From a virus, in IMG/VR virus record IMGVR_UViG_3300000062_000003, positions 5,628-69,627 of that record: DNA of 64,000 nt; one strand, given 5' to 3'. The notes under the pieces were generated by a model, which was not told the DNA's origin, searched no databases, and worked only from the letters and a program-made list of their open reading frames with translations. Positions 33,739 to 51,384 of this stretch are shown piece after piece (the first letter of the stretch is position 1; each line of letters opens with the position of its first letter). A program made the position numbers and the translations under genes.

Positions 33739-33779
33739 TGACCTGGTAGTTAGATTGTAGTATCAGGTCGTTTTTTTTC
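33739..33779 (+). terminator. Intrinsic terminator after the fibre gene
   Basis: GACCTGGTA/TATCAGGTC stem plus T-run. Confidence 0.75.
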
Positions 33780-33812
33780 TAATTGATAAATATCCCCCCC
33801 CCTAGTAATTAT

Positions 33813-34436
33813 ATGAAATATATTATAACACCACAAAGACATTATTTAAGAAAAATTATTAACTGCCAACGTGGTGGGCTTCTTACTTTGGCAGCTATAC
33901 TGAGTACTTTTATACTAACTGGATGTACTAGTATAGTGGGAATGTCTTCGGAAACATTTATAGGAGGAGTACCAACTAAAGATGTAATGATGCCTGTTGT
34001 AATAGAGATATTTGGGGTTATCTTTTATCTTTTATTCTTAGTAGTAGATTTTGGTACTGGAGTATGGGCTGCTAAAAAGGCATCCTCAAGACGAAAGTCG
34101 AAAGATAGCGTTATTAGAGCAGATAAGCTGTATAGGACTTTCTGGAAGTTACTAGGAGTACTTCTTCTAACAGGGCTTATAGGTACATTAGGAGTATTTG
34201 CATCAGTAATTTACCATCAATGGGCATATAAGACCTTAATGTGGGTACAAATAGTTATTTTAGTAGCAGCATGTCTGTATGAATTTCAGAGCATAGGAGA
34301 GAACATAAAAAAAGCTACAGGAACTAAGCCAGCTATTTTTGACTTTATAGGAGTTCTTTTTACTATTTTTAGAAGACGAGTTGTGGATAAAGTAGCAGGT
34401 GCAAGTTCTACTGAGGAAGAGAATAAGTTAGTTTAA
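33813..34436 (+). CDS. Holin (phage holin family 4-like)
   Basis: Multiple TMs; VDFGTGVWAAKK, FWKL and YEFQSIGEN motifs. ATG 33813 used; TTG 33783 is an alternative start. Confidence 0.8.
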   Translation: MKYIITPQRHYLRKIINCQRGGLLTLAAILSTFILTGCTSIVGMSSETFIGGVPTKDVMMPVVIEIFGVIFYLLFLVVDFGTGVWAAKKASSRRKSKDSVIRADKLYRTFWKLLGVLLLTGLIGTLGVFASVIYHQWAYKTLMWVQIVILVAACLYEFQSIGENIKKATGTKPAIFDFIGVLFTIFRRRVVDKVAGASSTEEENKLV

Positions 34437-36126: not shown

Positions 36127-36819
36127 TTGAATACTATGACAAATCGGGAATTAGTTAGTCAAATTTCTGGACAATTAAAAATGATAAACAAAGATGACCG
36201 AATTTCTCGTAGGCTCATCTTAGGAACAGCATTAAGATATTCTACAACTTTACATTCTCAGAAATTATTAGAAGGTACACTATTCAGAGAGGATAGTTTG
36301 TTTACTAAGTTGGAATGTGTGGAAATGGAGAAGGTAACTGCACAACGATGCGGATTAGCAGTACGGTGTAGTGTATTGATGAGAAGTAAAGAAAAACTAC
36401 CACATTCAGTCAGCAGTCGTTTTGGAAATTCAGTAATTATGGTTACCAACATCACTGACACTGTAGAGTTAAAAAAGGTAATATATGAAAATATAGTAGA
36501 TAAAACAACCCCCAGATATGCAGATTTAATTCCCAATACTCCATCATGGTTTGTATTTGATGATTATTTATATATTAAAGACTTCTCGATAGAGGCTGTA
36601 AATGTCCTTATTTTCTCCCTTCAACGGGATGACACTGCTAATAATGACAAAGGTAAGACAGGGGAATGCACCAATCACTGGGACTTAACATTTGTTTGCT
36701 CTGATAAGTTATTAGTTCCTATCATGCAATATACCATTCAGGAGTTAACTACCACGCGACAAATTGTGGAGGATGAACTTCCAGATGGAAATAGTAATGC
36801 TAAAGGAGGACAAGTTTAA
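36127..36819 (+). CDS. Tail ring/tubular protein (putative)
   Basis: MTNRELVS..., C..M..V...C...C and C.DKLL pattern of crAss-like ring proteins. Confidence 0.65.
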   Translation: MNTMTNRELVSQISGQLKMINKDDRISRRLILGTALRYSTTLHSQKLLEGTLFREDSLFTKLECVEMEKVTAQRCGLAVRCSVLMRSKEKLPHSVSSRFGNSVIMVTNITDTVELKKVIYENIVDKTTPRYADLIPNTPSWFVFDDYLYIKDFSIEAVNVLIFSLQRDDTANNDKGKTGECTNHWDLTFVCSDKLLVPIMQYTIQELTTTRQIVEDELPDGNSNAKGGQV

Positions 36820-36821
36820 GA

Positions 36822-37310
36822 ATGTCAGAAAAAATTAGTAGAGCTAAGGGAAAAGTATATTTAACAGGAAGTGATTTTGTTAAATTTTATACACATCAAG
36901 TCCATCAGTGTTCGCGACCTAAAGAAAAAAGAATTGTAGGCACAAACAAGGTAATTAATATTGTGGGCATGATTTTTGATGAAGTTGCCAAATCAGTAAC
37001 TCAAAATATAGCAGGAATACATTTATACAATATTGGATATTTTGGAGTCTGGAGAAGTTCTACAAATTTACTAGTATCTACTTATAAAAATAAAGAGATA
37101 TTCCTTAACAGCCATACAGATGGATATCAATATGTCTTAGATTTCTTCCCTGACACCACTAACAATACAGTTCTACATGGTTGGACAATGGATAGAATGT
37201 TCAGTAGACCAGTAAAACAAACATTAAGTGCAAATCTAAGGAAGGGGTATAAGTATAAGAATTTTTATGAAATATTCCTAAATAATAGGGAAAATGGTAT
37301 AAAAAATTGA
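36822..37310 (+). CDS. IHF/HU-like protein
   Basis: IFDEVAK...GIHLYNIGYFGVW; crAss-like phages carry IHF-like genes next to the tail genes. Confidence 0.6.
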   Translation: MSEKISRAKGKVYLTGSDFVKFYTHQVHQCSRPKEKRIVGTNKVINIVGMIFDEVAKSVTQNIAGIHLYNIGYFGVWRSSTNLLVSTYKNKEIFLNSHTDGYQYVLDFFPDTTNNTVLHGWTMDRMFSRPVKQTLSANLRKGYKYKNFYEIFLNNRENGIKN

Positions 37311-37314
37311 CATT

Positions 37315-38235
37315 ATGAATATTTTTGAAGACAAAATAGGTATAGACCAACTTATCAGCGAGGTACAAACTATGCTTCGTAAGTATAAGGACTCAGGATT
37401 TGTGACTGAGGCCAACATTATAGCTTTTACAATGGATAAACTAAAAGTGTTTGGAAATAATGTCATGGTAGACTATGAAGATGTAGTACCTATTGCTGAT
37501 TTTAGAGGCATGTTACCAAGTAATCTGTATAGAGTAAATGCAATGTATAAATGTCATTCTTGCGAGCCTATACAATCTCCATGTGACCCTTGTTCCAGTT
37601 GTGAGAGCGAAGAAGACAACTTATGTAAGCCAAGACCATACCCAGTAGCACAAAAGATGTTTAAATGGGCTGAAACTACCAGATATAGAGAGACAGAAAA
37701 TTCATGTGAGAATTGTGATTCTGAAATAGAGACTACAGTTGGCTGTGAAATGACCTATGTACCAGAAGTGGCACGGTTTCGGCTTAGAGGTAGGACACCC
37801 CTGACCTTTGGGAAAGGAATGCTTTCAGGAATGTGTACAGATGAATGTAGAAATTGTCAAGATAGGTCTTCTAAGTATCAAGTGGAAATAATGAGCGAAA
37901 GGATGCTTAAGACATCTTTTCCAAGTGGCTCTATTTATGTTCAATACTATGGGATTCCTTTGGATGAGAATAACAGACCAATGATTCAGAACTCAAATAA
38001 AGGATTTGTTTATGAGCACATAAAGTACTATGTGTTGATGAAGATTTTAGAGTACATTATTATTGAAAACGAACAAGCAATACCAGTATATCAATTGATG
38101 AGTCAGAAAGCTATGGAAACAGCAAGACCAGCATCAGTAGATGCGAAAGTTAGCACCTTCTCTAACACATCATATGTTCGTATGCGTGCTCAGAATAGAC
38201 GTAATACAGAACAGTATTTTCGTACTCGACCTTAA
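37315..38235 (+). CDS. Tail ring/tubular protein (putative)
   Basis: 306 aa, Cys-rich insert, SGSIYVQYYG..LDE motif; precedes the muzzle gene. Confidence 0.65.
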   Translation: MNIFEDKIGIDQLISEVQTMLRKYKDSGFVTEANIIAFTMDKLKVFGNNVMVDYEDVVPIADFRGMLPSNLYRVNAMYKCHSCEPIQSPCDPCSSCESEEDNLCKPRPYPVAQKMFKWAETTRYRETENSCENCDSEIETTVGCEMTYVPEVARFRLRGRTPLTFGKGMLSGMCTDECRNCQDRSSKYQVEIMSERMLKTSFPSGSIYVQYYGIPLDENNRPMIQNSNKGFVYEHIKYYVLMKILEYIIIENEQAIPVYQLMSQKAMETARPASVDAKVSTFSNTSYVRMRAQNRRNTEQYFRTRP

Positions 38236-38266
38236 TTATTTCTAAACAACCTAAAACTAACATACT

Positions 38267-41200
38267 GTGGTTAGACAAGATAAATATAATGTCCCGCAAG
38301 CAGGGATGGATACTGATACACATCCAATGGAACTTAAGGATGCATCATATACTTTCGCTAAAAATGCAATCCTAAATAGTGAAGGAGGAGATGGTATGGT
38401 AAAGCTACAAAATGAACCATCCAATTTATTAAATAGTGTTCTTCCTGTAGGATTTGTAGTAATAGGTAATATTTATGATGCACTTACTAACAGGGTGTAC
38501 TTATTCTTGGCTAATGACACTACGAAAGTTTCTGAAATAGGATTTATAACATTAGGAAGTGAGCTAGACCTTAAAGATAATGATTGGAGCTACGCCTGTG
38601 ACCACAAAGAGATTATTACAGAGAAGTTAGAGGAAATAGCACAATTACCATCTAATGTGTACACTACCTTACTTTCAGATGATTGTAATGGTACATTGAA
38701 TTTCTCTATTACACATCCATTTCGCGAAGGTACTATTGATTTAAAAAATGAGAAGTGTGGAAAAGTATTATATTTTACAGATAATCTGAATCCAACAAGG
38801 AGGTTAGAGTTAGATAATATTGATTGGTACAAGCAAAGTGATGAGGAGTCAGAAGGAGTTCGAACCAACTTAGATTACAATATCATTTCCCCAATCCCTG
38901 ACTGGGTACATCAAGTAAAAACAGCTACAGGATATTCATATACAGTGGATAATAACACTGAAGTAGCAGGACGTAATACTACTCTATTACTACAGCAAGA
39001 CGAAAGTGGAAGACAAGTTGCAATAACCATTAGACAAGATGGTATATTTATTCCTCCTACACCAGTAGATTGGAAATATACATTTGAATTAGTACCTGAA
39101 ACAATAGCTGCGTCAGGCTTAGGTGGAGTGTTTCCAGTATCTTTAGACAGTTTTAGAGATAATCAATTGACTCCATTTCAACATGAAGAACTTTCAGTAA
39201 GTTTAGAAGGACTCCCAAATTGGATTCAGTATGATTCTGAAACTAAGGAGTTTGTTATAAGTGAAAATTTAGGAACCATACCCAGGGAGACCAGCCTTTT
39301 ACTAAGACAGGCTGAAAGTAATAGTATACTTAGACTTACTATTATACAGGAGGTGGCTCCTCCAGCACCAGACCCTGACCCCGAATGGCGATATATACTT
39401 AATGTAGCACCAGTATCTCAACAATGCTCCAGTGCATCACATATAATTCCTTATAGTATTCTAAGCTATAAACAAGATATACATCACCCTGACATATTAA
39501 ATAACATTGATTACACTATAACCAGTGATTCTCCTTGGTTAGTAGTAGATACTTTCTTTGGACAATTAAATATAGCAGCTAATACTACAAGTGCAGTTAG
39601 GGAAGGAATAGTTACAGTAACTCAGAACGAGTCAGGATATACTGAAACAATAACTATAAAGCAAGGAGTAACGATAAATATTTATCCTGACCCGCCAGCA
39701 CCTCAGTTACCCATAGATTTTTTATTTACAGAAAGTAGTTTAACTAATACAGAGTTTTTCTTTATTGGTACTGATATTTCTGCCAGAAATACAGATGTAA
39801 GTAGTTACCGATATCTATTCAGTAATCCAGATAACCATATTCCCATAGATTTCAGGTTGAGAGCATTGGATAGTTGGGTTACTATAGAAAACACTTCTGA
39901 TAATACTTATTCAATTACTCCAAGTACAAATTCAGGAGATGACAGGGAGACATATGTTGTGTTTGAACAACGTATTAATGGAGTAGTGATTGAAGTTGGG
40001 AGGTATAAAGTGTTCCAACAAGGTATCCCTTTTACCTATACTTTCAGGCTATTACCTACTGTAATGGTATTTAGTAATACTGAAGGACAACAAACAATAA
40101 ATCCTCGAACAAGCAATAAAAGCAATTCTTCCACACCAATACCAGTAGGTTATGCAATTGAGTCAGGATACCCATCTTGGGTAACTCCTGCATTAGATAG
40201 GATTTCTGTAGAAAATAATCTAGGAGGATATCGTACTACAAGTGTTACTTATACACAAGAAGAATCAGGAAAACAGATTGTAATTGAAGTTAGACAGCAG
40301 GCACAGCCAGTTGTAACATTTTCGAGTGCATATTCTTCTGAAATAGAAATATCTGCAATATCAGATGCACAAGTTTCAGAATCACCATCTGACTTATTAA
40401 GAGATTCTATATTGCAAGCAAATTCTTCGCTCACTACATCTTTTATTTTATTTGCCAATCCTTCAAATTTATCTTTTACAGCAGATGATACAAGTAGTAA
40501 GCATATATTTGTGACAAGTTATAGGGAGGACTTTGACCCCTCATCCACGCCCCTGACCTGTGTAAATGTTGAAAGACTAAGACTAAGACCTAGATACAGT
40601 AAACCATGTATAACTCCTATTGCTATCTCTAATGGAGGTAATCTAAAAATGGGAGTATATGAGTATGTTGTAGCAGCATGTGACAAACAAGGCAATGAGT
40701 TCACTCCATTTTATGCAGCTACTACACCAGTATCTATATTTAATAAGGCAGATGTTATTATGGGGCAGCCAGAAATGGCTGGTAATTCAAATATGGGAGT
40801 CCTATTACAAGTGGAATGGGATGACCCCAGGGTAAAATATTATAAAATAGTAGTTGCTCAAACAGCCAGTTTAGATAGTACTACAACATATTATGAAGAG
40901 GGTATTTATCCAATATACACTAGAACTATAACTCATACTGATGATTTCAGTAAACAACCTACTACATTACAGCATCTTTATCAGATGCCGATGGTGTATG
41001 AGAAAACCAGAATGTTAACTTCTTCAAATGGGTATTTATTTGAAGGTGGAATAACTGTTAAGAAAGCCTTAAATTTGCAGCCAGCAGCTCTTCTGATAGG
41101 AGCATTAGCATTGTGGCAAACAGTAGAAACACTAGAAGGACTATACTCAAATGGAACATCTTCTGCACTATATAAATCAGCATTACGAGATGAAGTGTAT

Positions 41201-44200
41201 CCATATGGAATCAGATTCACAGGTAAAAGTGGATATGTGTCAGATACTTTTGTAATGGCTTCCAGACCTTCAAGACCTTTTGATGTAGAAGTATTACTTA
41301 GTACAAATATGAATGTAGAGTCTATTCGTAATGGAGCACAAGCTTGTACAATGGAGACTAGGTTGTTTAGATATCAGTTTGAAAATACTGCAACATTATT
41401 AGATTATAAAATTGAAGATGAATCATTAGTAGATGTAGGAGGCGGGGCAATAAATTTAAGTACAAATTGTAATGTAAAACCATATGAGACAGGTGAATTT
41501 GCATATTGGGAATCTGAGACAACCTACCCTGACAACGATGAGTTGTTTAATGCACAAAATCTACATATAGAGGAGTCTGATTTACCAGATATACCATATG
41601 TAAAAGATACTTTTGAAGAATTTTTTGTAGAAAGTAAAACTGGAGGACAATACACACTAAATTCTAATGCAGACTTTAGAAATAAAGGTATAAGACATTT
41701 TAAATATCCAGATTTCAATGTCTCTCCATTTATGGATTGTACAGAAGAAGCAACCTCTGACCCAAAAGCTCAGTTTACAGATAGTAATATATATCCTATT
41801 GGATTTTATATACATGAAGATGTGGTTAAATTTGCTTTAGATATATCTTTAAAAAATGGCTTATTGACACAAGAGGAGTACAATGATATAGATGGGTTTG
41901 AAATACTTCGAGGAGATAGAACAATTCACAAAAGTATTATAGCAAAAGGACTTGGCTATGACATGTACAGCTATAATGATACTACTAGCCAACCTGAACA
42001 AGAAATATGGTATCCTAATTTTCCTTACAATGATTTAACTTCCAATAAGTTACAATATATAAGAAGAGGTAGTGATAGAGATTCTGGTACTATAATACCA
42101 CACCCATATGAGGGTAAAAAAAATAATAAATTTGCTTTCCATTCCCCTGACATCTCTTTCCACAAACCACAACTACCCCAAGAACTAGTACTAGAAGGAT
42201 ATCAATATGGATGGTCTAAGGGAGTGTTCAATCAAGTAAGAGACCATTCTAGGTGGGTGATACTGACTAGCAATGCTTTTAATATAGCAAGAACACTAGC
42301 AATGGCTGAGGTGTTATTAGATGTACTAGGTAAGTATGGTGATAACATAATGGCACAAGCAACAATAAAGGATAGGGATATAACAGGTACAGTGGATTAT
42401 ACGAGTGGGCTAGGCCTAACCTCTACTAAGGTAGTTACAGTAACTTCTGTACCACCAGCTGTTGCTACTGATACTACAACAAGTGCACCATTTAAGGTAG
42501 ATTATGACTTGACACTATCTACAGACACAGGATGGCAAGAAAAGATAGTGATGGGACTATCTGCTGCTACTATATTGGGAAGTATAGGAGCATCCTATGC
42601 AGAAGCATATACAAGATGGTTAGAAATATTTAAAAAGTTTGGAGAACCAATAAATTTTGCATACTATTACACTTCAGTAGGACACTACAATAAAGGAGTC
42701 AAAAACTTAGATAATAATAACAATACTACAGAGAGTAACTTACGAACATTAATGGCTGCACATTATATATCCAATGCAGGCATGGTTAGTGTGAGTGAGC
42801 AGACAGGAATAAATACAAGAGAACAAGTTAAACTAAATGCTAGAGATAGAGAATCTTTCGTATATTTAAGTACAGGAGAACACTATCCATTAGATGTAAA
42901 TAGTAATGTAAGAAAAGAATTTGATGAGAGTAGAGTAATTGCAGGCGATGATGGATATACTGGTAATAATGACAGAGAAGTTTTTGCAGATATAGCATCT
43001 CCTTACTTCTCATTAAAACAGTATTTACCAAACCAATATGCATCAGTAAATTCTATTAAATGGTTACCCACAGGCCATTGTGGTATTTTTGGAAGGAAAA
43101 AACACCACCAAATATTTGGAGGAGATACTTTCATAACTAGATATGCACTAAAGAGAAAGGTTCCATTTTGGTATTCTACAGCACATGGCTTACGGGACAG
43201 GGAGCAATTTAATTATACACAGTATGACAATATAGGACAAAATGTTTATTATGCTAATTATGATACTTCAGATATAGAAGAGTTGGATATTCAAGGGATA
43301 CCAGCTGCAATTGCAGCATTAATTGGCATCAATGCTCCAACGCCCAAATGGAGAACAGATGCGAAGTTTGATACACTGCATGAAAGTGGAAATTATGTAA
43401 GAGAGTCTAGTAAACTATACTTATACTACTATGGTATCCCATCATTCTTATGTGAGTCAAGTGTAAATTGTGATTATAGATTTGCGAAAGCCAGACCAGA
43501 AGAAATGTTTTACCCACAAGTAGAAGATTATGTAGAATGGACACAGGAGAGTACAGTTAGTATTAGAGAAGATAATAAATTCTTTTATAATAATGTTTAC
43601 TCTAAAAATGCCATGTTAGCAAATGGCGGGGTACTACCAGAAACATATGAAAAAGAAGAGTATGATTGTAGGTTTGATATGCCAAATGGAGTAATCTACT
43701 CTATGCAAGATACTGGTGAGCAGGATATGACAGACCCTTGGTCAGTGTTCAGACCTTTAGATTTCTATCAATTTCCATCAAGTTTTGGAAGACTAGTACG
43801 ACTTAAAGGGATAGAGTCGAGTCAGGTATTAGGATTATTTGAAAATCAAGTGGTATTATATAATGCTATAGATGTTTTACGTGAAAGAACTGAATCTACT
43901 ACTAGAGAACTTGGAACAGGTGGAATATTTGCTAAGAGACCAGTAGAGTTCTTCAAAAGTGATTTAGGCTATGGAGGTTCACAGCACAGTGCTTTACTAT
44001 CTACTCCATATGGACATTTCTATATAGATTGTCAAAGAGGATTTTTTATGTTAATCCAACCAAATGGGAAAGGTATGCAGCCAATTTCTAAAGGTAAAAG
44101 TCGTTGGTTTAAGAAACATCTTCCATTTAAGATTCTAAAGGGAGGCATTAAGGGATTAACCTCTTTAGATGTAGATAATAATTACAATCATCTAGGAGTG

Positions 44201-45079
44201 ACTTTAGGGTGGGATAACAAGTATGATAGGATTATTTTCACAAAAGTTGATTATATTGTAAATAAGGAATGGAGAAATAAATTAATGTACGAAGAGGGTC
44301 GCCTCTACAAATTAACCGAAGAAGGATTTAGAGGAGAAGAAGTAGTTATCACTGATTCGAATATATTTAAGAATGCTTCGTTTACAATGTCCTACTCACC
44401 AGTTCAAGGGTATTGGTCATCGTATCACTCCTATACTCCTAATTATATTATTAGTAATTCTGAAACTTTTGCAACAGGATATAATATTGGTAATAAAAAT
44501 GGAATAGTTGATTCTAGTATATGGGAACATAACAGAACGGAACAATCTTTCTGCGTATTTCAGAATAAGTTATATTCATTTGAGATTGAGTATCCAGTTA
44601 CAAATACTGCTGCTAACAACTCATTGAGTAATGTAGCATACTGGCTGGATTGTAGGAGGTATAAAGATGCCACTAATTACGCAGCCCTGACCAGGATAGG
44701 ATTTGACGAAACCTTCATATACAATGAAACTGAAAACACAGGAGTAATGAATCTTGTTGTCGAAGAGAAAAATAATAGAAGGCAGTATATAGAATATCCA
44801 AAATATGTAGGAAACAATTTGCACATTTTAGTAGCTAACAGAGATAAAGAATGGAATCTTAACTCTATATATAATAGAATAAGAAGAGAAAATGTAAATG
44901 TCCCACAATTATTGTCTGATGTAAATGAGATTGATTTTGAGCCTAATTCTTCTGTTATTGACCGTAGTACAAGAAAACAAGATTTTCTTCGTGGAAACTG
45001 GTTTAAAATGCGCCTGAGAGCTAAGAAATCATCCTATAAGTTAATTTCAAATTGGTTTAGAAGTTCTATACAATCTTGA
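38267..45079 (+). CDS. Tail stabilisation (muzzle) protein with an inserted BACON array
   Basis: 2270 aa; G.DTD.HP...Y..AKNA N-terminus, RDEVYPYGIRF, GGDTFI.R and FGRL motifs; BACON-like repeats at 38849-40528. Confidence 0.85.
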   Translation: MVRQDKYNVPQAGMDTDTHPMELKDASYTFAKNAILNSEGGDGMVKLQNEPSNLLNSVLPVGFVVIGNIYDALTNRVYLFLANDTTKVSEIGFITLGSELDLKDNDWSYACDHKEIITEKLEEIAQLPSNVYTTLLSDDCNGTLNFSITHPFREGTIDLKNEKCGKVLYFTDNLNPTRRLELDNIDWYKQSDEESEGVRTNLDYNIISPIPDWVHQVKTATGYSYTVDNNTEVAGRNTTLLLQQDESGRQVAITIRQDGIFIPPTPVDWKYTFELVPETIAASGLGGVFPVSLDSFRDNQLTPFQHEELSVSLEGLPNWIQYDSETKEFVISENLGTIPRETSLLLRQAESNSILRLTIIQEVAPPAPDPDPEWRYILNVAPVSQQCSSASHIIPYSILSYKQDIHHPDILNNIDYTITSDSPWLVVDTFFGQLNIAANTTSAVREGIVTVTQNESGYTETITIKQGVTINIYPDPPAPQLPIDFLFTESSLTNTEFFFIGTDISARNTDVSSYRYLFSNPDNHIPIDFRLRALDSWVTIENTSDNTYSITPSTNSGDDRETYVVFEQRINGVVIEVGRYKVFQQGIPFTYTFRLLPTVMVFSNTEGQQTINPRTSNKSNSSTPIPVGYAIESGYPSWVTPALDRISVENNLGGYRTTSVTYTQEESGKQIVIEVRQQAQPVVTFSSAYSSEIEISAISDAQVSESPSDLLRDSILQANSSLTTSFILFANPSNLSFTADDTSSKHIFVTSYREDFDPSSTPLTCVNVERLRLRPRYSKPCITPIAISNGGNLKMGVYEYVVAACDKQGNEFTPFYAATTPVSIFNKADVIMGQPEMAGNSNMGVLLQVEWDDPRVKYYKIVVAQTASLDSTTTYYEEGIYPIYTRTITHTDDFSKQPTTLQHLYQMPMVYEKTRMLTSSNGYLFEGGITVKKALNLQPAALLIGALALWQTVETLEGLYSNGTSSALYKSALRDEVYPYGIRFTGKSGYVSDTFVMASRPSRPFDVEVLLSTNMNVESIRNGAQACTMETRLFRYQFENTATLLDYKIEDESLVDVGGGAINLSTNCNVKPYETGEFAYWESETTYPDNDELFNAQNLHIEESDLPDIPYVKDTFEEFFVESKTGGQYTLNSNADFRNKGIRHFKYPDFNVSPFMDCTEEATSDPKAQFTDSNIYPIGFYIHEDVVKFALDISLKNGLLTQEEYNDIDGFEILRGDRTIHKSIIAKGLGYDMYSYNDTTSQPEQEIWYPNFPYNDLTSNKLQYIRRGSDRDSGTIIPHPYEGKKNNKFAFHSPDISFHKPQLPQELVLEGYQYGWSKGVFNQVRDHSRWVILTSNAFNIARTLAMAEVLLDVLGKYGDNIMAQATIKDRDITGTVDYTSGLGLTSTKVVTVTSVPPAVATDTTTSAPFKVDYDLTLSTDTGWQEKIVMGLSAATILGSIGASYAEAYTRWLEIFKKFGEPINFAYYYTSVGHYNKGVKNLDNNNNTTESNLRTLMAAHYISNAGMVSVSEQTGINTREQVKLNARDRESFVYLSTGEHYPLDVNSNVRKEFDESRVIAGDDGYTGNNDREVFADIASPYFSLKQYLPNQYASVNSIKWLPTGHCGIFGRKKHHQIFGGDTFITRYALKRKVPFWYSTAHGLRDREQFNYTQYDNIGQNVYYANYDTSDIEELDIQGIPAAIAALIGINAPTPKWRTDAKFDTLHESGNYVRESSKLYLYYYGIPSFLCESSVNCDYRFAKARPEEMFYPQVEDYVEWTQESTVSIREDNKFFYNNVYSKNAMLANGGVLPETYEKEEYDCRFDMPNGVIYSMQDTGEQDMTDPWSVFRPLDFYQFPSSFGRLVRLKGIESSQVLGLFENQVVLYNAIDVLRERTESTTRELGTGGIFAKRPVEFFKSDLGYGGSQHSALLSTPYGHFYIDCQRGFFMLIQPNGKGMQPISKGKSRWFKKHLPFKILKGGIKGLTSLDVDNNYNHLGVTLGWDNKYDRIIFTKVDYIVNKEWRNKLMYEEGRLYKLTEEGFRGEEVVITDSNIFKNASFTMSYSPVQGYWSSYHSYTPNYIISNSETFATGYNIGNKNGIVDSSIWEHNRTEQSFCVFQNKLYSFEIEYPVTNTAANNSLSNVAYWLDCRRYKDATNYAALTRIGFDETFIYNETENTGVMNLVVEEKNNRRQYIEYPKYVGNNLHILVANRDKEWNLNSIYNRIRRENVNVPQLLSDVNEIDFEPNSSVIDRSTRKQDFLRGNWFKMRLRAKKSSYKLISNWFRSSIQS
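38849..40528 (+). repeat. In-frame 560-aa array of BACON-like Ig domains
   Basis: Repeated P.W...N....R......Q.ES......I.Q units: one C-terminal half, four complete units, a linker and one N-terminal half. Confidence 0.8.
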
Positions 45080-45097
45080 CCATAAATAAAATACTAT

Positions 45098-46951
45098 ATG
45101 CCTACACGAGATTTAAGAAATAATCAAGTTGAACCTTTAGCTAGTGAGAGTACCAGCACCTCAACCCCTGACCCCTCACTACAAATAGTCAAAAGAAAAC
45201 AAAGAAATACTAAAGAAACACCTAATACTACTAATAGTACCAATACAACACATACTATTGTTTCAGGGGATATCCTTAGTCGTATTGCTAAAGATAATGG
45301 AGTAACCTTAGAAGGACTTTTAGCTGTAAATCCAGGTATAAGTAATCCTAACAATGTACCAATAGGACAGGTAGTGAACATACCTAGACCAGATGGAATA
45401 TCATCTACTATTACTCAAGAGTTAGTACAAGCAGAGCAGGAGTATCGACAAAAAAGACAAAAAGCGCGCCCAAAAGATAATGTAAGTTCTGTATACTCTG
45501 TAATAAAAGGAGATAATTTAAGTAAGATAGCAAGAGCACATAATGTATCAGTTCAAACTATATTACAGAACAACCCTGACATTAGAGATGCTAATCAAAT
45601 AGAAATAGGGCAGGAAATAAAAATTCCTACTAATCCTTCTAACCAGCGTACTATACCTATGAACTTTTCTACTATTCAGAAAAGGGAAGAAGAAATAAAT
45701 CAGATGTCAGATGTTGATATTATCAATCATTATCATAAGACCCAGAAAACGGGTAAAGCATACATGATAGATGATAAAGCAAATGGGAGAACATCAGTCT
45801 ATAGAAATGGACAGTTAATTAAATCATATGTAAGTGTACATGGAAAAGCTGCTGACCTGGACGATATGACCATTACTTATGTAGATAAGAAAACAAAAGA
45901 GATTATAGATGGAGCAGGTAATATGTCCACTCCAGCAGGTGTCTATAAACTTGTTCCTAGTGGTAGGTATTATGGAGCACCTGCTTTTATGAGGCAGTTA
46001 CCCATACAGTTTGCTAAGAAAATGGAAGATGGTATTCCTTCTTCTGTACATGTGCGAAATGTAAGAGATGGGTCTAAGTTTAAGACTAATGGATGTACAG
46101 GGATGGCAGCCTGTGACCTAAGGGATATGGCTAAGTATATAAAAGAACCTACTGAATCATACATTTTACCTGTAGAGGAAGGTAATAGATTTTATTTACG
46201 CAATGGAGAGCTACAATTTAGAACTAATAACGTAGCAGAAACTCCAGCACATAATACTATGAACTATGCACCAGCTACTAGTATACTGAGCAACAAACAT
46301 CGTAATTTAACAGAACATCAACAAGAAGTTGCTGCTGCCTTCGTAAAATCTTTAGCTGATAATAAGGTAGCCATACAACAAGCAACAGGGCTTAATAATG
46401 ATAGTTATATTCAATTAGCTAAAGTAGCTTATGGAATGCTAGGAGCAGAGTCTACTTTTGGTAAGGAAAACTCTGCACTAGAAAATGTAGGTAAATTTTT
46501 AGGAAAGGCTACTGGACTGCATTCTACAAGTCCTGATATATATTCTAAGCATGATACCTATGAGCCAGTATTAAGGTTTTTAGGCCAATCTACAAATAAT
46601 AGGTCAGTTGGACTTACTCAAATAAGAATGACCCAATTATCAAAGGAAGATAAGAAGTTATTAAAGCAATTTAGGATACATAGACATTCACTAGTCAATT
46701 CTCCTGAAAAGGCTGCAATAGCCACAATGATAAAACTAGCAACTGCATATAAAAATCATGGACATAATATAGAAAGAGCACTCAGTAAAGAGTGGAATAG
46801 TGGGGTACATTATCAGGATATTGTTAATGACTATAGCAGAGACTTGGAGTTTAATCAAGACTATCCAGTAACTGAGGAAGAGTACAACAAGTACTGGGGG
46901 GGGGGTCGCCAGTTACACCAACATTCAAGGAAGGAGGTACTACTATGGTAA
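45098..46951 (+). CDS. Virion peptidoglycan enzyme: 2x LysM + YkuD/LDT-like + lysozyme-like domain
   Basis: HTIVSGDILSRIA and YSVIKGDNLSKIA (LysM); STPAGVY...SVH...TNGC (YkuD); GMLGAES...GLTQ (lysozyme-like). Confidence 0.85.
   Translation: MPTRDLRNNQVEPLASESTSTSTPDPSLQIVKRKQRNTKETPNTTNSTNTTHTIVSGDILSRIAKDNGVTLEGLLAVNPGISNPNNVPIGQVVNIPRPDGISSTITQELVQAEQEYRQKRQKARPKDNVSSVYSVIKGDNLSKIARAHNVSVQTILQNNPDIRDANQIEIGQEIKIPTNPSNQRTIPMNFSTIQKREEEINQMSDVDIINHYHKTQKTGKAYMIDDKANGRTSVYRNGQLIKSYVSVHGKAADLDDMTITYVDKKTKEIIDGAGNMSTPAGVYKLVPSGRYYGAPAFMRQLPIQFAKKMEDGIPSSVHVRNVRDGSKFKTNGCTGMAACDLRDMAKYIKEPTESYILPVEEGNRFYLRNGELQFRTNNVAETPAHNTMNYAPATSILSNKHRNLTEHQQEVAAAFVKSLADNKVAIQQATGLNNDSYIQLAKVAYGMLGAESTFGKENSALENVGKFLGKATGLHSTSPDIYSKHDTYEPVLRFLGQSTNNRSVGLTQIRMTQLSKEDKKLLKQFRIHRHSLVNSPEKAAIATMIKLATAYKNHGHNIERALSKEWNSGVHYQDIVNDYSRDLEFNQDYPVTEEEYNKYWGGGRQLHQHSRKEVLLW
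46896..46905 (+). repeat. G10 homopolymer at the junction of two hydrolase genes
   Basis: Ten consecutive G in a roughly one-third GC genome. Confidence 0.9.
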
Positions 46952-48618
46952 CTAATAAAAAGCCAGCATTCCTTTCCACACCCTGCCCATGTTCTTTTGA
47001 GATTGGTGGCAGTATAAAGCAATCAGCATTACAATCTCTAGTAACATCACAACTAGGTAATTTTTCAGTTCCTAGATTTTTCACAGGAGGCCAAGTAGAA
47101 GGAGACAGATTGAGAAAATTAGCTTCTGAAGGGGGGCAGTATTCCAGAGCCAACACAGCCCTGACCCCAGAAGCTGAAGCAGAAAAAGAAGCAGGACTAG
47201 CAGGTGGAATAGGTACAATTGGTGTTAGTAATATCCTCCAAGCTTCTCATCCAAAAGTTGATAAGTTTTTTGATGCTGTAGGCCTAGGGGTTAGTGCTGT
47301 AGATGTAGCAGGATATACCTTAGGATTTGAAGATGGAGGACAAGTACTCTATGGTGAGAATGGGTTTACTGCACCTGCCTACACAACTTATGGTTCGATA
47401 GCACCTCAACCATCAACTGTTGAGCCAACTGTTCCTGTTACACCAAGTTACGATGCTCCAGCAAGAAGAAGCAACCTTATTTGGAAGCCAGGAGTAACTT
47501 CTGCCAATCTAGACCCTGAGATGGTAAGTATTTTAGATGAGTATGACAGACGAGGGGTAGGAATCAGAATCACCAGTGGATTTGCTCAGAATGGACATAG
47601 TGATAAAAGTAGACATTATCATGGTAGGGCTATTGATATCACACCAATACCAGGACAGACATATCAACAACTACTGGCTAATATCAACGCGCACCCTGAC
47701 CTCGTAGATAGATTTATAGCAGCAGGATATAAAATACATGATGAAACTCAAGGGGGCGGTAAAGGATGGTCAGGTGCACATTTACATATCGGAGACGACT
47801 CTAAATTGAGTACTAATAGTTGGAGAACAATGACAGTAAAAGATAATACAGCAATGAATAACTATTTGTCAAATAATGCAAATGAGGCATATAATTTCTT
47901 TATAGGAAAAGGCCTGTCTCCTGTAGCAGCTGCTGGAATTGTTGGTAATTTTATGCAAGAATCTTCGAAAGACCTTAAAACTACAGCATGGAATAAGGCA
48001 GAGGGTGCATTTGGAGTAGGACAATGGAGAGGAGAAAGGTACACTGCATTGAGTGCTTTTGCAAGTAAAAGAGGAGCTTTTAAACATGAGTTTCCTACAC
48101 AATTAGAATTTACATGGCATGAGATGAATACCACACATAAATCAGCACTCAATAAATTAATGGCTGCTACAACAGTAGAGGAGGCAACAGATGCATTCAA
48201 TGCAGAGTTTGAACGTTCTGCGGATAGGAAAGGTACAGCAGGATGGAATAATAGAGTAACATTTGCCAACCAAGTATATAATAGTCATAATACACCTGAG
48301 TTGGGATATCCAGAGTATGCGCCCAGTTATGATATTCCTTCCCAACCACACACCCCTGACCCCCTATACCAATTCAGTAAATACATGGAAGAGTATCTAT
48401 CAAAACAACAAGAGGTTCAACAATACAACTCTGAACAGTTTAATAAGATACAGGAAGAACACCAACAACAACAGACAGAAAAGAAAGCTAAAAAAGCACA
48501 AGATGATGCAATAAAACAAGAATTATTAAATCGACAAAAAGAACGAGATGCAGTATTACAAGCAGCTTCTACATTAGAAATACCAACTGACCAATTAATC
48601 AGAGATTTTGGTATTTGA
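46945..48618 (+). CDS. Virion protein: peptidase M15-like + phage tail lysozyme domain
   Basis: RITSG...SRHYHGRAIDI...HLHI (M15); GLSPVAAAGIVGNFMQES...GVGQW (tail lysozyme). Confidence 0.85.
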   Translation: MVTNKKPAFLSTPCPCSFEIGGSIKQSALQSLVTSQLGNFSVPRFFTGGQVEGDRLRKLASEGGQYSRANTALTPEAEAEKEAGLAGGIGTIGVSNILQASHPKVDKFFDAVGLGVSAVDVAGYTLGFEDGGQVLYGENGFTAPAYTTYGSIAPQPSTVEPTVPVTPSYDAPARRSNLIWKPGVTSANLDPEMVSILDEYDRRGVGIRITSGFAQNGHSDKSRHYHGRAIDITPIPGQTYQQLLANINAHPDLVDRFIAAGYKIHDETQGGGKGWSGAHLHIGDDSKLSTNSWRTMTVKDNTAMNNYLSNNANEAYNFFIGKGLSPVAAAGIVGNFMQESSKDLKTTAWNKAEGAFGVGQWRGERYTALSAFASKRGAFKHEFPTQLEFTWHEMNTTHKSALNKLMAATTVEEATDAFNAEFERSADRKGTAGWNNRVTFANQVYNSHNTPELGYPEYAPSYDIPSQPHTPDPLYQFSKYMEEYLSKQQEVQQYNSEQFNKIQEEHQQQQTEKKAKKAQDDAIKQELLNRQKERDAVLQAASTLEIPTDQLIRDFGI

Positions 48619-48690: not shown

Positions 48691-51384
48691 ATGGCATATA
48701 TTACAGATGAATATTTCTATAACAACCCTATTCCTACAAATCAAGGAATAGCACCTGTACCTGCTTCAAATCAAGGTATTACCCCATTTACACCAGGTAC
48801 ATCCGAACCTTCTACAAATGATTTAACCAGATTATTCAATTTTCGACCAGGAAGTGATGTATTAAGTGATGAAGATTTATTAAGAGAATTGAGAAGCACT
48901 GCATCCCCTGCTCTGACTAATAAATATGGACTTTATAATTCTCCATCTGAGATAATGGGAGAACCTACAGACGAACCTTTAGTTCCTCAAACTAACAATA
49001 CACCCCAAACAAATCAACCAAGTAGCTTTCAACAGTTTTTAAATGACCCATCTCTTTTAGCTGGCATATCTGATATGGGAACTAATCTTAATAGGCTAGG
49101 ACGTGCTATTGGCTATAATCCTACTGGAGAAAATATTAGAAATCAAGGACAAGCCAGAAGAGGTAAAACCTTAAGTATTATTGGACATACAGGAGGTGCG
49201 CTATTACAAGGGGCTAAAAATATTCTAGGAGGAATGGCAAGTCAGAGACTCTACCAAGAAACTATGGATGCTTATTATCGTCAACAACGAGAAGCAATGC
49301 AAAACAAGGTAGAGTTTATAGGAAGAAAAGGAGGAGTAATCAGAGAATTTGCCAATGGAGGTGTTTTAGCTGAGTTGGAAGCTGGTGAGTATATTAGAAC
49401 TCCTGATGGACAAGTAGAACAAGTACAAGGTAGGACACATGAGCAAGGAGGAGAGTTGTATAATTTGGAGGCAATGACTGAGGTGACCTCTGACAACCTT
49501 AAAATAGGAAAAGCAGGAATAACTCAGCTAGAAAAAATGTATCCAAATCTAAAGCTTAAACTGAATCCTACTGATACATATGCAGACGTTATTAGAAAAG
49601 CTGAAGCTAGAATAGGTATTCCAAAAAAAGATGAAGAAATACTAGCAGCACAAGAACAGCTGGATACCTTAAATAGAGAAGATACTGCAACATATGGAAT
49701 GAATAGTGTATTCCTCCAAAAGAAACTAGAAACATTACAACAGGAGAAACAATTCTTGGAAGATACTAGATTGGAGTTTATAGATGTGATATTTGGACTG
49801 CAAGAAAGTGGGAAAAGAGGTAAAACACCTAAGACTGACCAGTTTTTTGAGAATGGTGGGTCAGTATCCGAAAACCAGATGAAGATTTTTGCACGCAAGA
49901 CTGGATATCCAATGTCTTATGTTCAAGAATATTTTAAGAGAAAGTCTATTCCTAAATTTGATAATGGAGGGGGAGTAGCTCGTGAATTTGAATTAATGTT
50001 AAATCCACATAGAGTAGGAGCAGATGCTCCAGGTAGTTATACTCATCAAAGTTTGACACCAACTGAAGTAGGCTCTCCAACCTCAGGAGATGTGACAGAA
50101 TCCACATTCACTGACCGCGTAAATACCATACTAAACCTGTTTCCAAAAGCTAATGATTATTTCAACATAGAAAGAGATAAAGCAGGTACAGTAACAAAGT
50201 TAACATTTAAAGAAGCAGATTCAGCCAGACACTTCCAAAAATATATCAACAGGGTTTATGATAACTATGAAAAGTATGCAGGGAAACATATAAAGGATGA
50301 AGCACAAAGAAAAGAATTTAGAGAGGCAGTAGCCTCATTTAGGTTCGATGAGACAGAGAAAGACCCAGTACGTGCCTTTGATAATATATTTGGTAACTTT
50401 ACATCTTCTCGAAGTAATATTGCACTTCCACTAGTAACAACTTCAGAGTTGGAGGCATTAAAAGGTAAGAATATTAATAATTTTTCACAACTTTTTGGGG
50501 ATGGAGTTGATTTAAAATCACTATCTTTGTCTGATGAAACAATAAAACGAATAGAAGGGCTAAAAGAAGAGTTTGGGGATGACTTTGCACCTATGTTAAT
50601 GGGCATTCCAACTCCTACAACACCTTCGCCAACCGCACCAGCAACAACTTCAGAGACTCCACAAGAAAAAATAGACCCTAACAAAGGGTTAGATAATCCA
50701 CCAAATCTACAAACTAATAAAGCTCCATTTAGAACTCCATACATACCAAATCAATATAGGTATGATTATGATACAGTGGATGCGCATTTAATGGTGACAC
50801 CTAGGTTTGGAAGGTTAAATCCAGTTGCAGTAGACCCTACAAGACAAATTAAAGAGGTGTATAATGCAGCAGATGCTGGTTTCGGTAAAATGGAAGGTAT
50901 GGCAGATGCACAAAGACTGGCTGTTACTTCGAATATAATAGCTAATTCGCAAGCAGCTGTTAATCAAGCAATAGCTGATGCTGAGGCGAAAAACACTATT
51001 AATCAATATACAACAGACCAGTTTAATATTGGACAAGGAGATAAAGAAGAGGCTGCTAGAATAGGTGCAATGATGAGTTATGAGCAGAGACAACTAACAG
51101 CAGATGCTATTACTAGAGCAAATAATTTTGAGTTGGAGAATTATAATAGAAGAACAACTATACAGAACTATAATCGTGTTATAAATATGAGAAATACTCA
51201 TAATTTATTTGAAGATTATGGAGTAGACCAGTTTGGTGGGGTATACAGAGCAACTCAAAATGATAAGCTAACACTTGCTGAAAATATAGCTGCAAGACAA
51301 GCACTGTTATCACAAATGGAAGCAGCACAAGCAGGTATAACTGCTCCAACAAGACAACATAATAAAACTACAAGGACATCATGA
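48691..51384 (+). CDS. Cargo/ejection protein
   Basis: 897 aa; ELEAGE...G.THEQGG motif and FxxGG repeats; TAACTTTG at 48655-48662. Confidence 0.75.
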   Translation: MAYITDEYFYNNPIPTNQGIAPVPASNQGITPFTPGTSEPSTNDLTRLFNFRPGSDVLSDEDLLRELRSTASPALTNKYGLYNSPSEIMGEPTDEPLVPQTNNTPQTNQPSSFQQFLNDPSLLAGISDMGTNLNRLGRAIGYNPTGENIRNQGQARRGKTLSIIGHTGGALLQGAKNILGGMASQRLYQETMDAYYRQQREAMQNKVEFIGRKGGVIREFANGGVLAELEAGEYIRTPDGQVEQVQGRTHEQGGELYNLEAMTEVTSDNLKIGKAGITQLEKMYPNLKLKLNPTDTYADVIRKAEARIGIPKKDEEILAAQEQLDTLNREDTATYGMNSVFLQKKLETLQQEKQFLEDTRLEFIDVIFGLQESGKRGKTPKTDQFFENGGSVSENQMKIFARKTGYPMSYVQEYFKRKSIPKFDNGGGVAREFELMLNPHRVGADAPGSYTHQSLTPTEVGSPTSGDVTESTFTDRVNTILNLFPKANDYFNIERDKAGTVTKLTFKEADSARHFQKYINRVYDNYEKYAGKHIKDEAQRKEFREAVASFRFDETEKDPVRAFDNIFGNFTSSRSNIALPLVTTSELEALKGKNINNFSQLFGDGVDLKSLSLSDETIKRIEGLKEEFGDDFAPMLMGIPTPTTPSPTAPATTSETPQEKIDPNKGLDNPPNLQTNKAPFRTPYIPNQYRYDYDTVDAHLMVTPRFGRLNPVAVDPTRQIKEVYNAADAGFGKMEGMADAQRLAVTSNIIANSQAAVNQAIADAEAKNTINQYTTDQFNIGQGDKEEAARIGAMMSYEQRQLTADAITRANNFELENYNRRTTIQNYNRVINMRNTHNLFEDYGVDQFGGVYRATQNDKLTLAENIAARQALLSQMEAAQAGITAPTRQHNKTTRTS

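Follow-up and report, generated by a model that had tools for sequence, protein, structure and literature searches.

The window analysed here is a stretch of 64 kb from the genome of a crAss-like phage, taken from an IMG/VR record of 110,764 bp (IMGVR_UViG_3300000062_000003; G000:C1:5628-69627) whose completeness is estimated at 73%. This report focuses on a run of ten guanines (G10) located where two overlapping open reading frames (ORFs) of the window, ORF1 and ORF2, meet. Both ORFs code for predicted peptidoglycan hydrolases, and the question considered is whether they are one gene or two and how the G10 tract bears on their expression. Related loci and the homologous proteins that were compared are designated by L- and P-numbers, respectively, and the coordinates of all features are collected in Table 1.

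The G10 tract and the reading frames on either side

Read in the frame of ORF1, the G10 tract is made up of the last two bases of a tryptophan codon, GGG GGG and the first two bases of GGT, and the ORF1 product ends as ...NKYW-GGG-RQLHQHSRKEVLLW*. ORF2 lies in the -1 frame relative to ORF1. This frame is closed up to position 46875 and open from 46876, which leaves an open overlap of 76 nt with ORF1, and across the tract it reads GGG-SPVTPT-FKEGG-TT-M. The tract, the end of ORF1, the open -1 frame and the match of FKEGG to the F-x-x-G-G motifs of ORF2 had all been described in an initial annotation made from the sequence alone, and all were confirmed. The same annotation had proposed that, with eleven or eight guanines, the two ORFs would be read as a single 1173-aa protein. 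Indeed, adding one G (G11) or removing two (G8) fuses both frames into an open product of 1173 or 1172 aa, respectively, and a G8-like read-through (P0003), made with a hand-set code (TGGG = W, GTCG = S), is free of stops over its 1172 aa. The junction peptide expected from the fused frame is YWGGGSPVTPTFK. The third frame hits a stop shortly past the tract, and G10 and G9 both truncate the product after 15–17 residues.

The position of the G10 tract at the frame junction is more than chance. In the window, whose G+C content is about 35%, the count of G runs drops about five-fold with each added base, and the only run longer than 7 is G10. Over the whole 110,764-bp contig, G10 is the sole coding homopolymer of at least 8 nt, the runs A10, G8 and C9 all being intergenic, and no other pair of long ORFs joined through a long homopolymer was found. 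Codon preference does not explain the run, since GGG is a minor glycine codon (12% of Gly codons).

Past the tract, the sequence is coding-like in the ORF2 frame only. This was assessed with codon tables derived from the long genes of the window, the comparison windows being conditioned on the absence of stops. The 13 ORF2-frame codons that separate the tract from the ATG of ORF2 score +3.5 bits, a value equalled by 1.2% of stop-free off-frame windows, and the tail of ORF1 scores -8.9 bits, a value as low as that of none of 4136 true-frame windows (0/4136). When the test is slid along the sequence, its sign flips at the tract and not at the ATG. The motif F..GG occurs 18 times among the 221,524 six-frame residues of the contig, and four of these occurrences are grouped within 46924-47340 in the ORF2 frame. 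FKEGG (46924-46938) is the first of the four and lies upstream of the sole ATG, GTG or TTG codon in the ORF2 frame; the background frequency of 8e-5 per residue corresponds to an expectation of about 7e-4 for the stretch upstream of ATG 46945.

Comparison with homologues narrows the site of the frame change. ORF1 matches its homologues up to a Y-K-x-G-G motif and the -1 frame is closed to 46875, hence the frame must change within 46876-46948. The Y-K-x-G-G boundary is invariant in the homologues, and the G tract partly encodes the copy found in the window. Beyond it, the tail RQLHQHSRKEVLLW is hydrophilic and unrelated to the conserved hydrophobic tail (like LGIKNIIGI) of the stand-alone homologues, and in P0004-7, P0008/9, P0021, P0025 and P0027 a single polypeptide runs on past the GG with more x-G-G motifs. 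These results support the view that ORF1 and ORF2 belong together and that the coding frame shifts at the G tract.

The F-x-x-G-G array at 46924-47340 (FKEGG, FEIGG, FFTGG and FEDGG, along with SEGG) may perhaps act as a signal for processing or packaging. Three F-[AED]-N-G-G motifs are present in the next gene (897 aa) at 49348-49971, and P0004-7 contain basic variants such as K-K-R-M-G-G and K-A-K-V-G-G.

The start of ORF2 was considered separately. No Shine-Dalgarno (SD)-like sequence is found at 45 of the 48 predicted gene starts in the window, which have A/T-rich upstream sequences instead; the sequence 5′ of ATG 46945 does not have the A/T-rich context typical of nearly all other starts. 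The element AAGGAGGT lies at 46931-46938, 6 nt 5′ of ATG 46945, and its hexamer AGGAGG had been taken as a signal that could allow ORF2 to be initiated on its own. This hexamer occurs 30 times on the + strand, is common inside genes, and here lies within the AAG GAA GGA GGT codons of K-E-G-G. Given the SD-free starts and the K-E-G-G codons, AGGAGG was rejected as a functional ribosome-binding site, and the suggestion that it serves separate initiation was not borne out: this phage does not use SD sequences, and AGGAGG therefore says nothing in favour of ORF2 having a start of its own. A scan for sigma-70 promoters and terminators around the junction gave background levels.

Domains of the two products and their genomic context

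Table 1. Features of the ORF1/ORF2 locus and of the genes upstream of it (positions in the window)
Feature	Position	Strand	Remarks
CrAss_Ring_2	36127-36819	+	Context upstream of ORF1
162-aa ORF	Between CrAss_Ring_2 and CrAss_Ring_1	+	
CrAss_Ring_1	37315-38235	+	Context upstream of ORF1
Muzzle-like protein, 2270 aa	38267-45079	+	BACON domain; directly upstream of ORF1
Context block fixing the slot	36127-45079	+	Synteny with L005, L013 and phi4:1
ORF1, 617 aa	45098-46951	+	N-terminal low-complexity region, two LysM, YkuD-like, lysozyme-like, 15-residue tail after the tract
Two LysM domains, residues ~52-96 and ~133-177	45251-45628	+	Pfam PF01476, E 8.8e-25, two stretches
YkuD-like domain (L,D-transpeptidase fold), residues 226-352	45773-46153	+	Pfam PF03734, 22.9 bits (cutoff 23.4)
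Lysozyme-like/lytic-transglycosylase-like domain, residues 395-602	46280-46903	+	AlphaFold2 model of residues 395-604, pLDDT 86.2
G10 homopolymer	46896-46905	+	Inside ORF1, at the supported point of coding-frame change
13 ORF2-frame codons before the ATG, SPVTPTFKEGGTT	46906-46944	+	Hold the first F-x-x-G-G motif (46924-46938)
ORF1-frame tail RQLHQHSRKEVLLW and TAA stop	46907-46951	+	Codon usage not coding-like
ORF2, 557 aa	46945-48618	+	ATG overlaps the ORF1 stop as ATGGTAA
Gly-rich linker, ~165 residues	46945-47436	+	FEIGG, FFTGG, SEGG, FEDGG
LAS-type zinc peptidase (peptidase M15/Hedgehog-N fold), ORF2 residues 165-305	47437-47859	+	Profile against Protein Data Bank (PDB)
Phage_lysozyme2 (tail lysozyme), ORF2 residues 310-446	47872-48282	+	Pfam PF18013, E 1.3e-30

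The order of domains proposed in the initial annotation (LysM-LysM-YkuD-lysozyme-M15-tail lysozyme) proved right by Pfam, profile and structure matches, the YkuD-like domain being borderline in the window. The LysM assignment also follows from PDB profile matches to LysM proteins, which were the only matches of the ORF1 profile against the PDB sequences. PF03734 is above its cutoff in the homologue P0008 (28.9 bits), and His318 and Asn-Gly-Cys 331-333 of the YkuD-like domain are invariant in the alignment. The lysozyme-like domain has an invariant Glu451 in G-x-E-S and ends at the conserved Y-K-x-G-G, here N-K-Y-W-G-G. A VIA-align comparison of this helical C-terminal domain gave Z scores of 9.5-6 to muramidases, MltF, MltC, Slt70, g-type lysozyme and phage endolysins, and nearly all of the top 44 matches, as well as nearly all of those down to Z 5, are to muramidases, lytic transglycosylases, endolysins and other peptidoglycan hydrolases of lysozyme-like type or to glycosidases related to them; PF01464 matches the lysozyme-like domain of the homologue P0025. 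A Foldseek search of the same domain against the PDB returned nothing at E ≤0.001.

The Gly-rich linker with which ORF2 begins has no detected homologues, and a structure-atlas look-up of ORF2 residues 1-175 gave scores of at most 0.82 with TM ≤0.30. No clear transmembrane helix was found in the linker, where the highest 19-residue Kyte-Doolittle value is 1.28. The LAS-type domain matches Hedgehog N-domains (E 1.7e-7, PDB profile) and Peptidase_M15_3 (best E 6.9e-6 among family members), and its His, Asp and H-x-H are invariant in the alignment. A tblastn search with the Phage_lysozyme2 domain found virion proteins of Cellulophaga phages phi4:1 and phi17:2, along with tail lysins of Bacillus and Staphylococcus phages. 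As a whole, the two products combine wall-binding and wall-cleaving domains in which the catalytic residues are kept, as in a virion peptidoglycan hydrolase.

ORF1 and ORF2 occupy the block that follows the ring and muzzle genes, and proteins of 897, 1040 and 1762 aa are encoded downstream of ORF2. The 2270-aa muzzle-like protein matches the virion protein family of phi4:1 (phrog_37948) with an E value of 1e-296, and the order ring, muzzle and large proteins is also found in L005, L008 and L013. In crAss-like phages, the products of the genes that follow the muzzle gene are ejected cargo proteins (Bayfield et al., 2023; PMC10172136). By this genomic position and by the proteomics of phi4:1 described below, the products of ORF1 and ORF2 are putative virion cargo. 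The SD-free starts and the BACON domains of the muzzle-like protein point to a host among the Bacteroidota. The window contains long intact ORFs under the standard code, and ORFs of up to 2270 aa are intact over the 110-kb contig, with no sign of general homopolymer errors. The crAss-like relatives with ORF1 homologues (L003 and L008-L012) are translated correctly only if TAG is read as Gln.

Homologues in the same slot

ORF1-type modules exist either as stand-alone proteins of 504–560 aa or as the N-terminal part of proteins of 650–1260 aa, and the stand-alone homologues stop 8–13 residues past the GG, in their conserved hydrophobic tail. The module made of M15 and lysozyme2 is found as a stand-alone protein in P0059. 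The initial annotation had made its proposal depend on whether homologues are fused. Fused and split architectures were both found, and homologues are thus neither always split nor always fused.

Three syntenic relatives (L005, L013 and phi4:1) have a single gene in the slot after the muzzle gene. L013 and L005 are the nearest syntenic relatives of the catalytic part of ORF2: in L013, a gene of 386 aa is the only one that separates the muzzle-like gene from the following conserved large gene, and L005 has a 704-aa gene in the slot, in the same layout but with an extra ANT-domain gene just downstream. This ANT-domain (anti-repressor) gene separates the hydrolase gene from the following large cargo gene, at L005:10566-11396 and L006:12321-13151. 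In Cellulophaga phage phi4:1, gp041 (YP_008240629.1), like its homologue in phi17:2, occupies the slot of ORF1 and ORF2 directly after a virion protein of ~2290 aa, and precedes virion proteins of 895, 974 and 1957 aa. It carries Phage_lysozyme2 as ORF2 does (38–39% identity), and its record annotates detection in virions by tandem mass spectrometry (MS/MS). Unlike the locus in the window, gp041 is a single gene of 739 aa with an N-terminal lysozyme, and has no LysM, YkuD, transglycosylase, M15 or G tract. The window also shares the order Ring2, Ring1, muzzle and large proteins with PhicrAss001, whose gp45 and gp46 are cargo (PMC10172136); ORF1 and ORF2 are likened to them by gene order and not by sequence similarity, and no peptidoglycan-hydrolase domain is reported for gp45 and gp46 in that study.

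At the nucleotide level, a megablast of the window against phages gave no match, and the exact tract-spanning pattern, with G6 to G14 allowed, was found nowhere in viral or metagenome contig collections. Scans of viral and metagenome contigs with peptide patterns from ORF1, ORF2 and the junction revealed no close relative.

Explanations for the tract

Probably, ORF1 and ORF2 form a single gene for a peptidoglycan-hydrolase cargo, and the length of the G homopolymer breaks its frame in the assembly. The full product of ~1173 aa would consist of two LysM domains, the YkuD-like and lysozyme-like domains, a Gly-rich linker with the F-x-x-G-G array, the LAS/M15 peptidase and the tail lysozyme. The break would fall at a Gly-Gly domain boundary, G10 being either an in-frame G11 minus one base or an in-frame G8 plus two. 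The tract may have grown by slippage in a glycine linker that tolerates steps of ±3 nt. On this reading, G10 would not reflect programmed recoding or the evolution of two separate genes, but would be a miscall in the consensus or else a true variant in length of an unstable run. A genome with G10 would still produce the LysM-YkuD-lysozyme part, and ORF2 would be expressed only through re-initiation at the overlapping ATG. At a conserved intergenic site in 17 related crAss-like contigs, the length of a G/C tract ranges from G6 to G14, which indicates that differences in tract length, real or technical, are common in the group.

Some observations weigh against a single broken gene. The codon-usage test is noisy, since inside ORF2 the windows that begin at 46954-46978 point to the wrong frame, by about +5 bits. 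A profile of the 60 post-GG residues of the long homologues found no match among the six-frame fragments of the contig (all E ≥2.6), and continuity over the junction is therefore a matter of motifs and not of alignable homology. The overlap of ATG 46945 with the ORF1 stop (ATGGTAA) is a normal coupling arrangement and, in L008, L009, L012 and a GenBank assembly, a LysM-YkuD-lysozyme gene is followed by an overlapping -1-frame Phage_lysozyme2 gene. These pairs lend weight to the view that ORF1 and ORF2 are two genuine genes, the former ending at 46951 and the latter translated from ATG 46945 by coupling, with the G run encoding just Gly-Gly-Gly and the open -1 frame with its FKEGG being a relic or due to chance, which we nevertheless regard as unlikely. 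The order of modules is the same as in the overlapping pairs (13-nt overlap, 3n+1 class). In L008, L009 and L012 (P0023/P0024, TAG-recoded), as in the window, an ORF1 homologue (40–42% identity) precedes the overlapping -1 tail-lysozyme gene and the pair sits downstream of a crAss_MUZ gene, just as the pair in the window follows the muzzle-like gene. Unlike in the window, their -1 frame meets a closing TAA six codons ahead of the ATG and no homopolymer is present, which makes them real gene pairs; moreover, their first protein has the hydrophobic tail and their second has neither linker nor M15. In L012 (L012:2565-3041) and the same GenBank assembly, a gene for a retropepsin-like aspartic protease (Asp_protease_2/gag-asp_proteas, 158 aa) directly follows the tail-lysozyme gene. 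Many stand-alone homologues end soon past the GG motif, P0059 exemplifies an M15 and lysozyme2 module that can stand alone, and an open -1 stretch of 13–23 codons is not rare by chance (0.2–0.4 by our own estimate). However, two genuine genes would leave FKEGG upstream of the start (~7e-4), a tail of ORF1 that is neither coding-like nor similar to the tails of homologues, and a start codon devoid of the A/T-rich upstream context of nearly all others, and ORF2 would open with a linker of ~165 residues that is absent from its stand-alone relatives. Less credible still is programmed recoding on a true G10, in which a -1 ribosomal slip on G_GGG_GGG or slippage of RNA polymerase would set a fixed ratio of short to fused product, as for the tail assembly chaperones G and GT of phage lambda. 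As in lambda, the slip would add the translation of an overlapping -1 ORF to the upstream product; the -1 frame of ORF2 overlaps ORF1 openly over 76 nt, and the P- and A-site tRNA-Gly would re-pair perfectly on the G run. Efficient slippery sites of the form X_XXY_YYZ require that Y be A or U, and A/T runs account for most documented cases of transcriptional slippage. Unlike the lambda site, the window offers no canonical heptamer, its only candidate being G_GGG_GGG, which would place GGG in the A site, and ORF1 and ORF2 belong to another class of gene. No downstream hairpin or pseudoknot was found (minimum free energy z of +0.87 for 46906-46990 and +1.07 for 46880-47030 against shuffles), no slip site is kept in L008 and L012, which have the same pair with a closed -1 frame, and SD-type stimulators are not expected in an SD-free phage. 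Hence the programmed -1 frameshifting envisaged in the initial annotation found no support, given the missing stimulatory fold, the GGG in the A site and the lack of conservation in relatives.

The tract could, on the other hand, be a selected contingency locus, where slippage by ±1 would yield a mixed population of fused (G8/G11) and truncated (G9/G10) forms, with or without a separate ORF2, as a form of bet-hedging over the host envelope or the packaging of cargo; this possibility is of low probability in our judgement. It would account for a sole long coding homopolymer in 110 kb that falls exactly at the frame junction and that, with GGG a minor Gly codon, does not stem from codon preference, and, through the overlap of the ATG with the ORF1 stop, both states would yield active enzymes. 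The closest precedent, by analogy, is the hypermutable polyG tracts in genes of Campylobacter phages, which vary within populations and affect receptor-binding proteins and host range (Sorensen et al., 2021, Cell Rep 35:109214, as cited in PMC12823448). As far as these tracts are described there, the likeness lies in a run of about 10 G in a virion-associated gene, where a change of ±1 in length switches the frame. By the same account, the window differs in that the gene belongs to a crAss-like phage and would encode an ejected wall hydrolase, that the tract would toggle between fused and truncated products instead of on and off, and that it is known from one consensus sequence. Simple-sequence repeats in the ORFs of T2 agt and T4 rIIA likewise cause reversible frameshifts via polymerase slippage (Gomez, Barrick and Waters, 2025, bioRxiv 10.1101/2025.10.21.683753); those repeats are mostly of ~6–9 nt and shift at ~1e-4 to 1e-3 in deep reads, as opposed to the single consensus sequence of the window. 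The variation of G/C tract lengths between related crAss-like contigs also fits a contingency locus, as do the presence of a homopolymer of at least ~7 nt in a coding region and the definable effect of ±1 unit on the product. Nevertheless, no relative has a tract at this position, none being present at the GG boundary of the homologues, and the genome is not enriched in such tracts, this one being the sole coding run of at least 8 nt, as opposed to the several usually found in phase-variable genomes. Furthermore, a Gly-rich linker that tolerates slippage by ±3 nt can grow a G run neutrally. The regulated switch between split and fused enzymes that had been proposed from the sequence is thus not supported, the tract being neither conserved in homologues nor enriched in the contig.

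If the two ORFs are indeed one broken gene, they should be annotated as a single frameshifted cargo gene, whose product, with two LysM and four enzyme-type domains, would be an unusually rich wall-degrading protein. A true tract of G11 or G8 would make G10 a mere homopolymer miscall. Real length heterogeneity, if present, would make this the first report of a polyG contingency locus in a crAss-like phage, and likewise the first in a gene for an ejected enzyme. It would tie in with the variable intergenic G/C tracts of related crAss-like contigs and would carry phage phase variation beyond receptor-binding proteins, to injected cargo and a Crassvirales-like lineage.

Long homopolymers also occur between genes. 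In L018-L053, an intergenic element of the form ...TTATTAACATATA, G run, TATTTTGCCGCCTCTCCC... lies ~40 nt 5′ of a gene start (e.g., L036:2216-2227 and L019:2247-2260), and among the 17 contigs its run is G6 (one contig), G7 (one), G8 (four), G9 (five), G10 (three), G12 (two) or G14 (one). A second site, at L036:7407-7416, carries a GGGG followed by C8-C10, and these could pair with each other. Both the G-run sites of L018-L053 and the C-run site of L036 may be hairpin/terminator elements or hypervariable tracts. In the contig studied here, a G8 run is intergenic (C1:85622-85629) and an A10 run directly precedes an ATG (C1:77641-77650), both outside the window. Within the window, a GACCTG...CAGGTC hairpin with a T8 tail follows the stop of the tail-fibre gene in a terminator-like arrangement (33745-33816), after which comes an intergenic C9 run (33794-33802) located 11 nt 5′ of the likely ATG (33814) of a holin-like gene (Phage_holin_4_1, E 1e-5).

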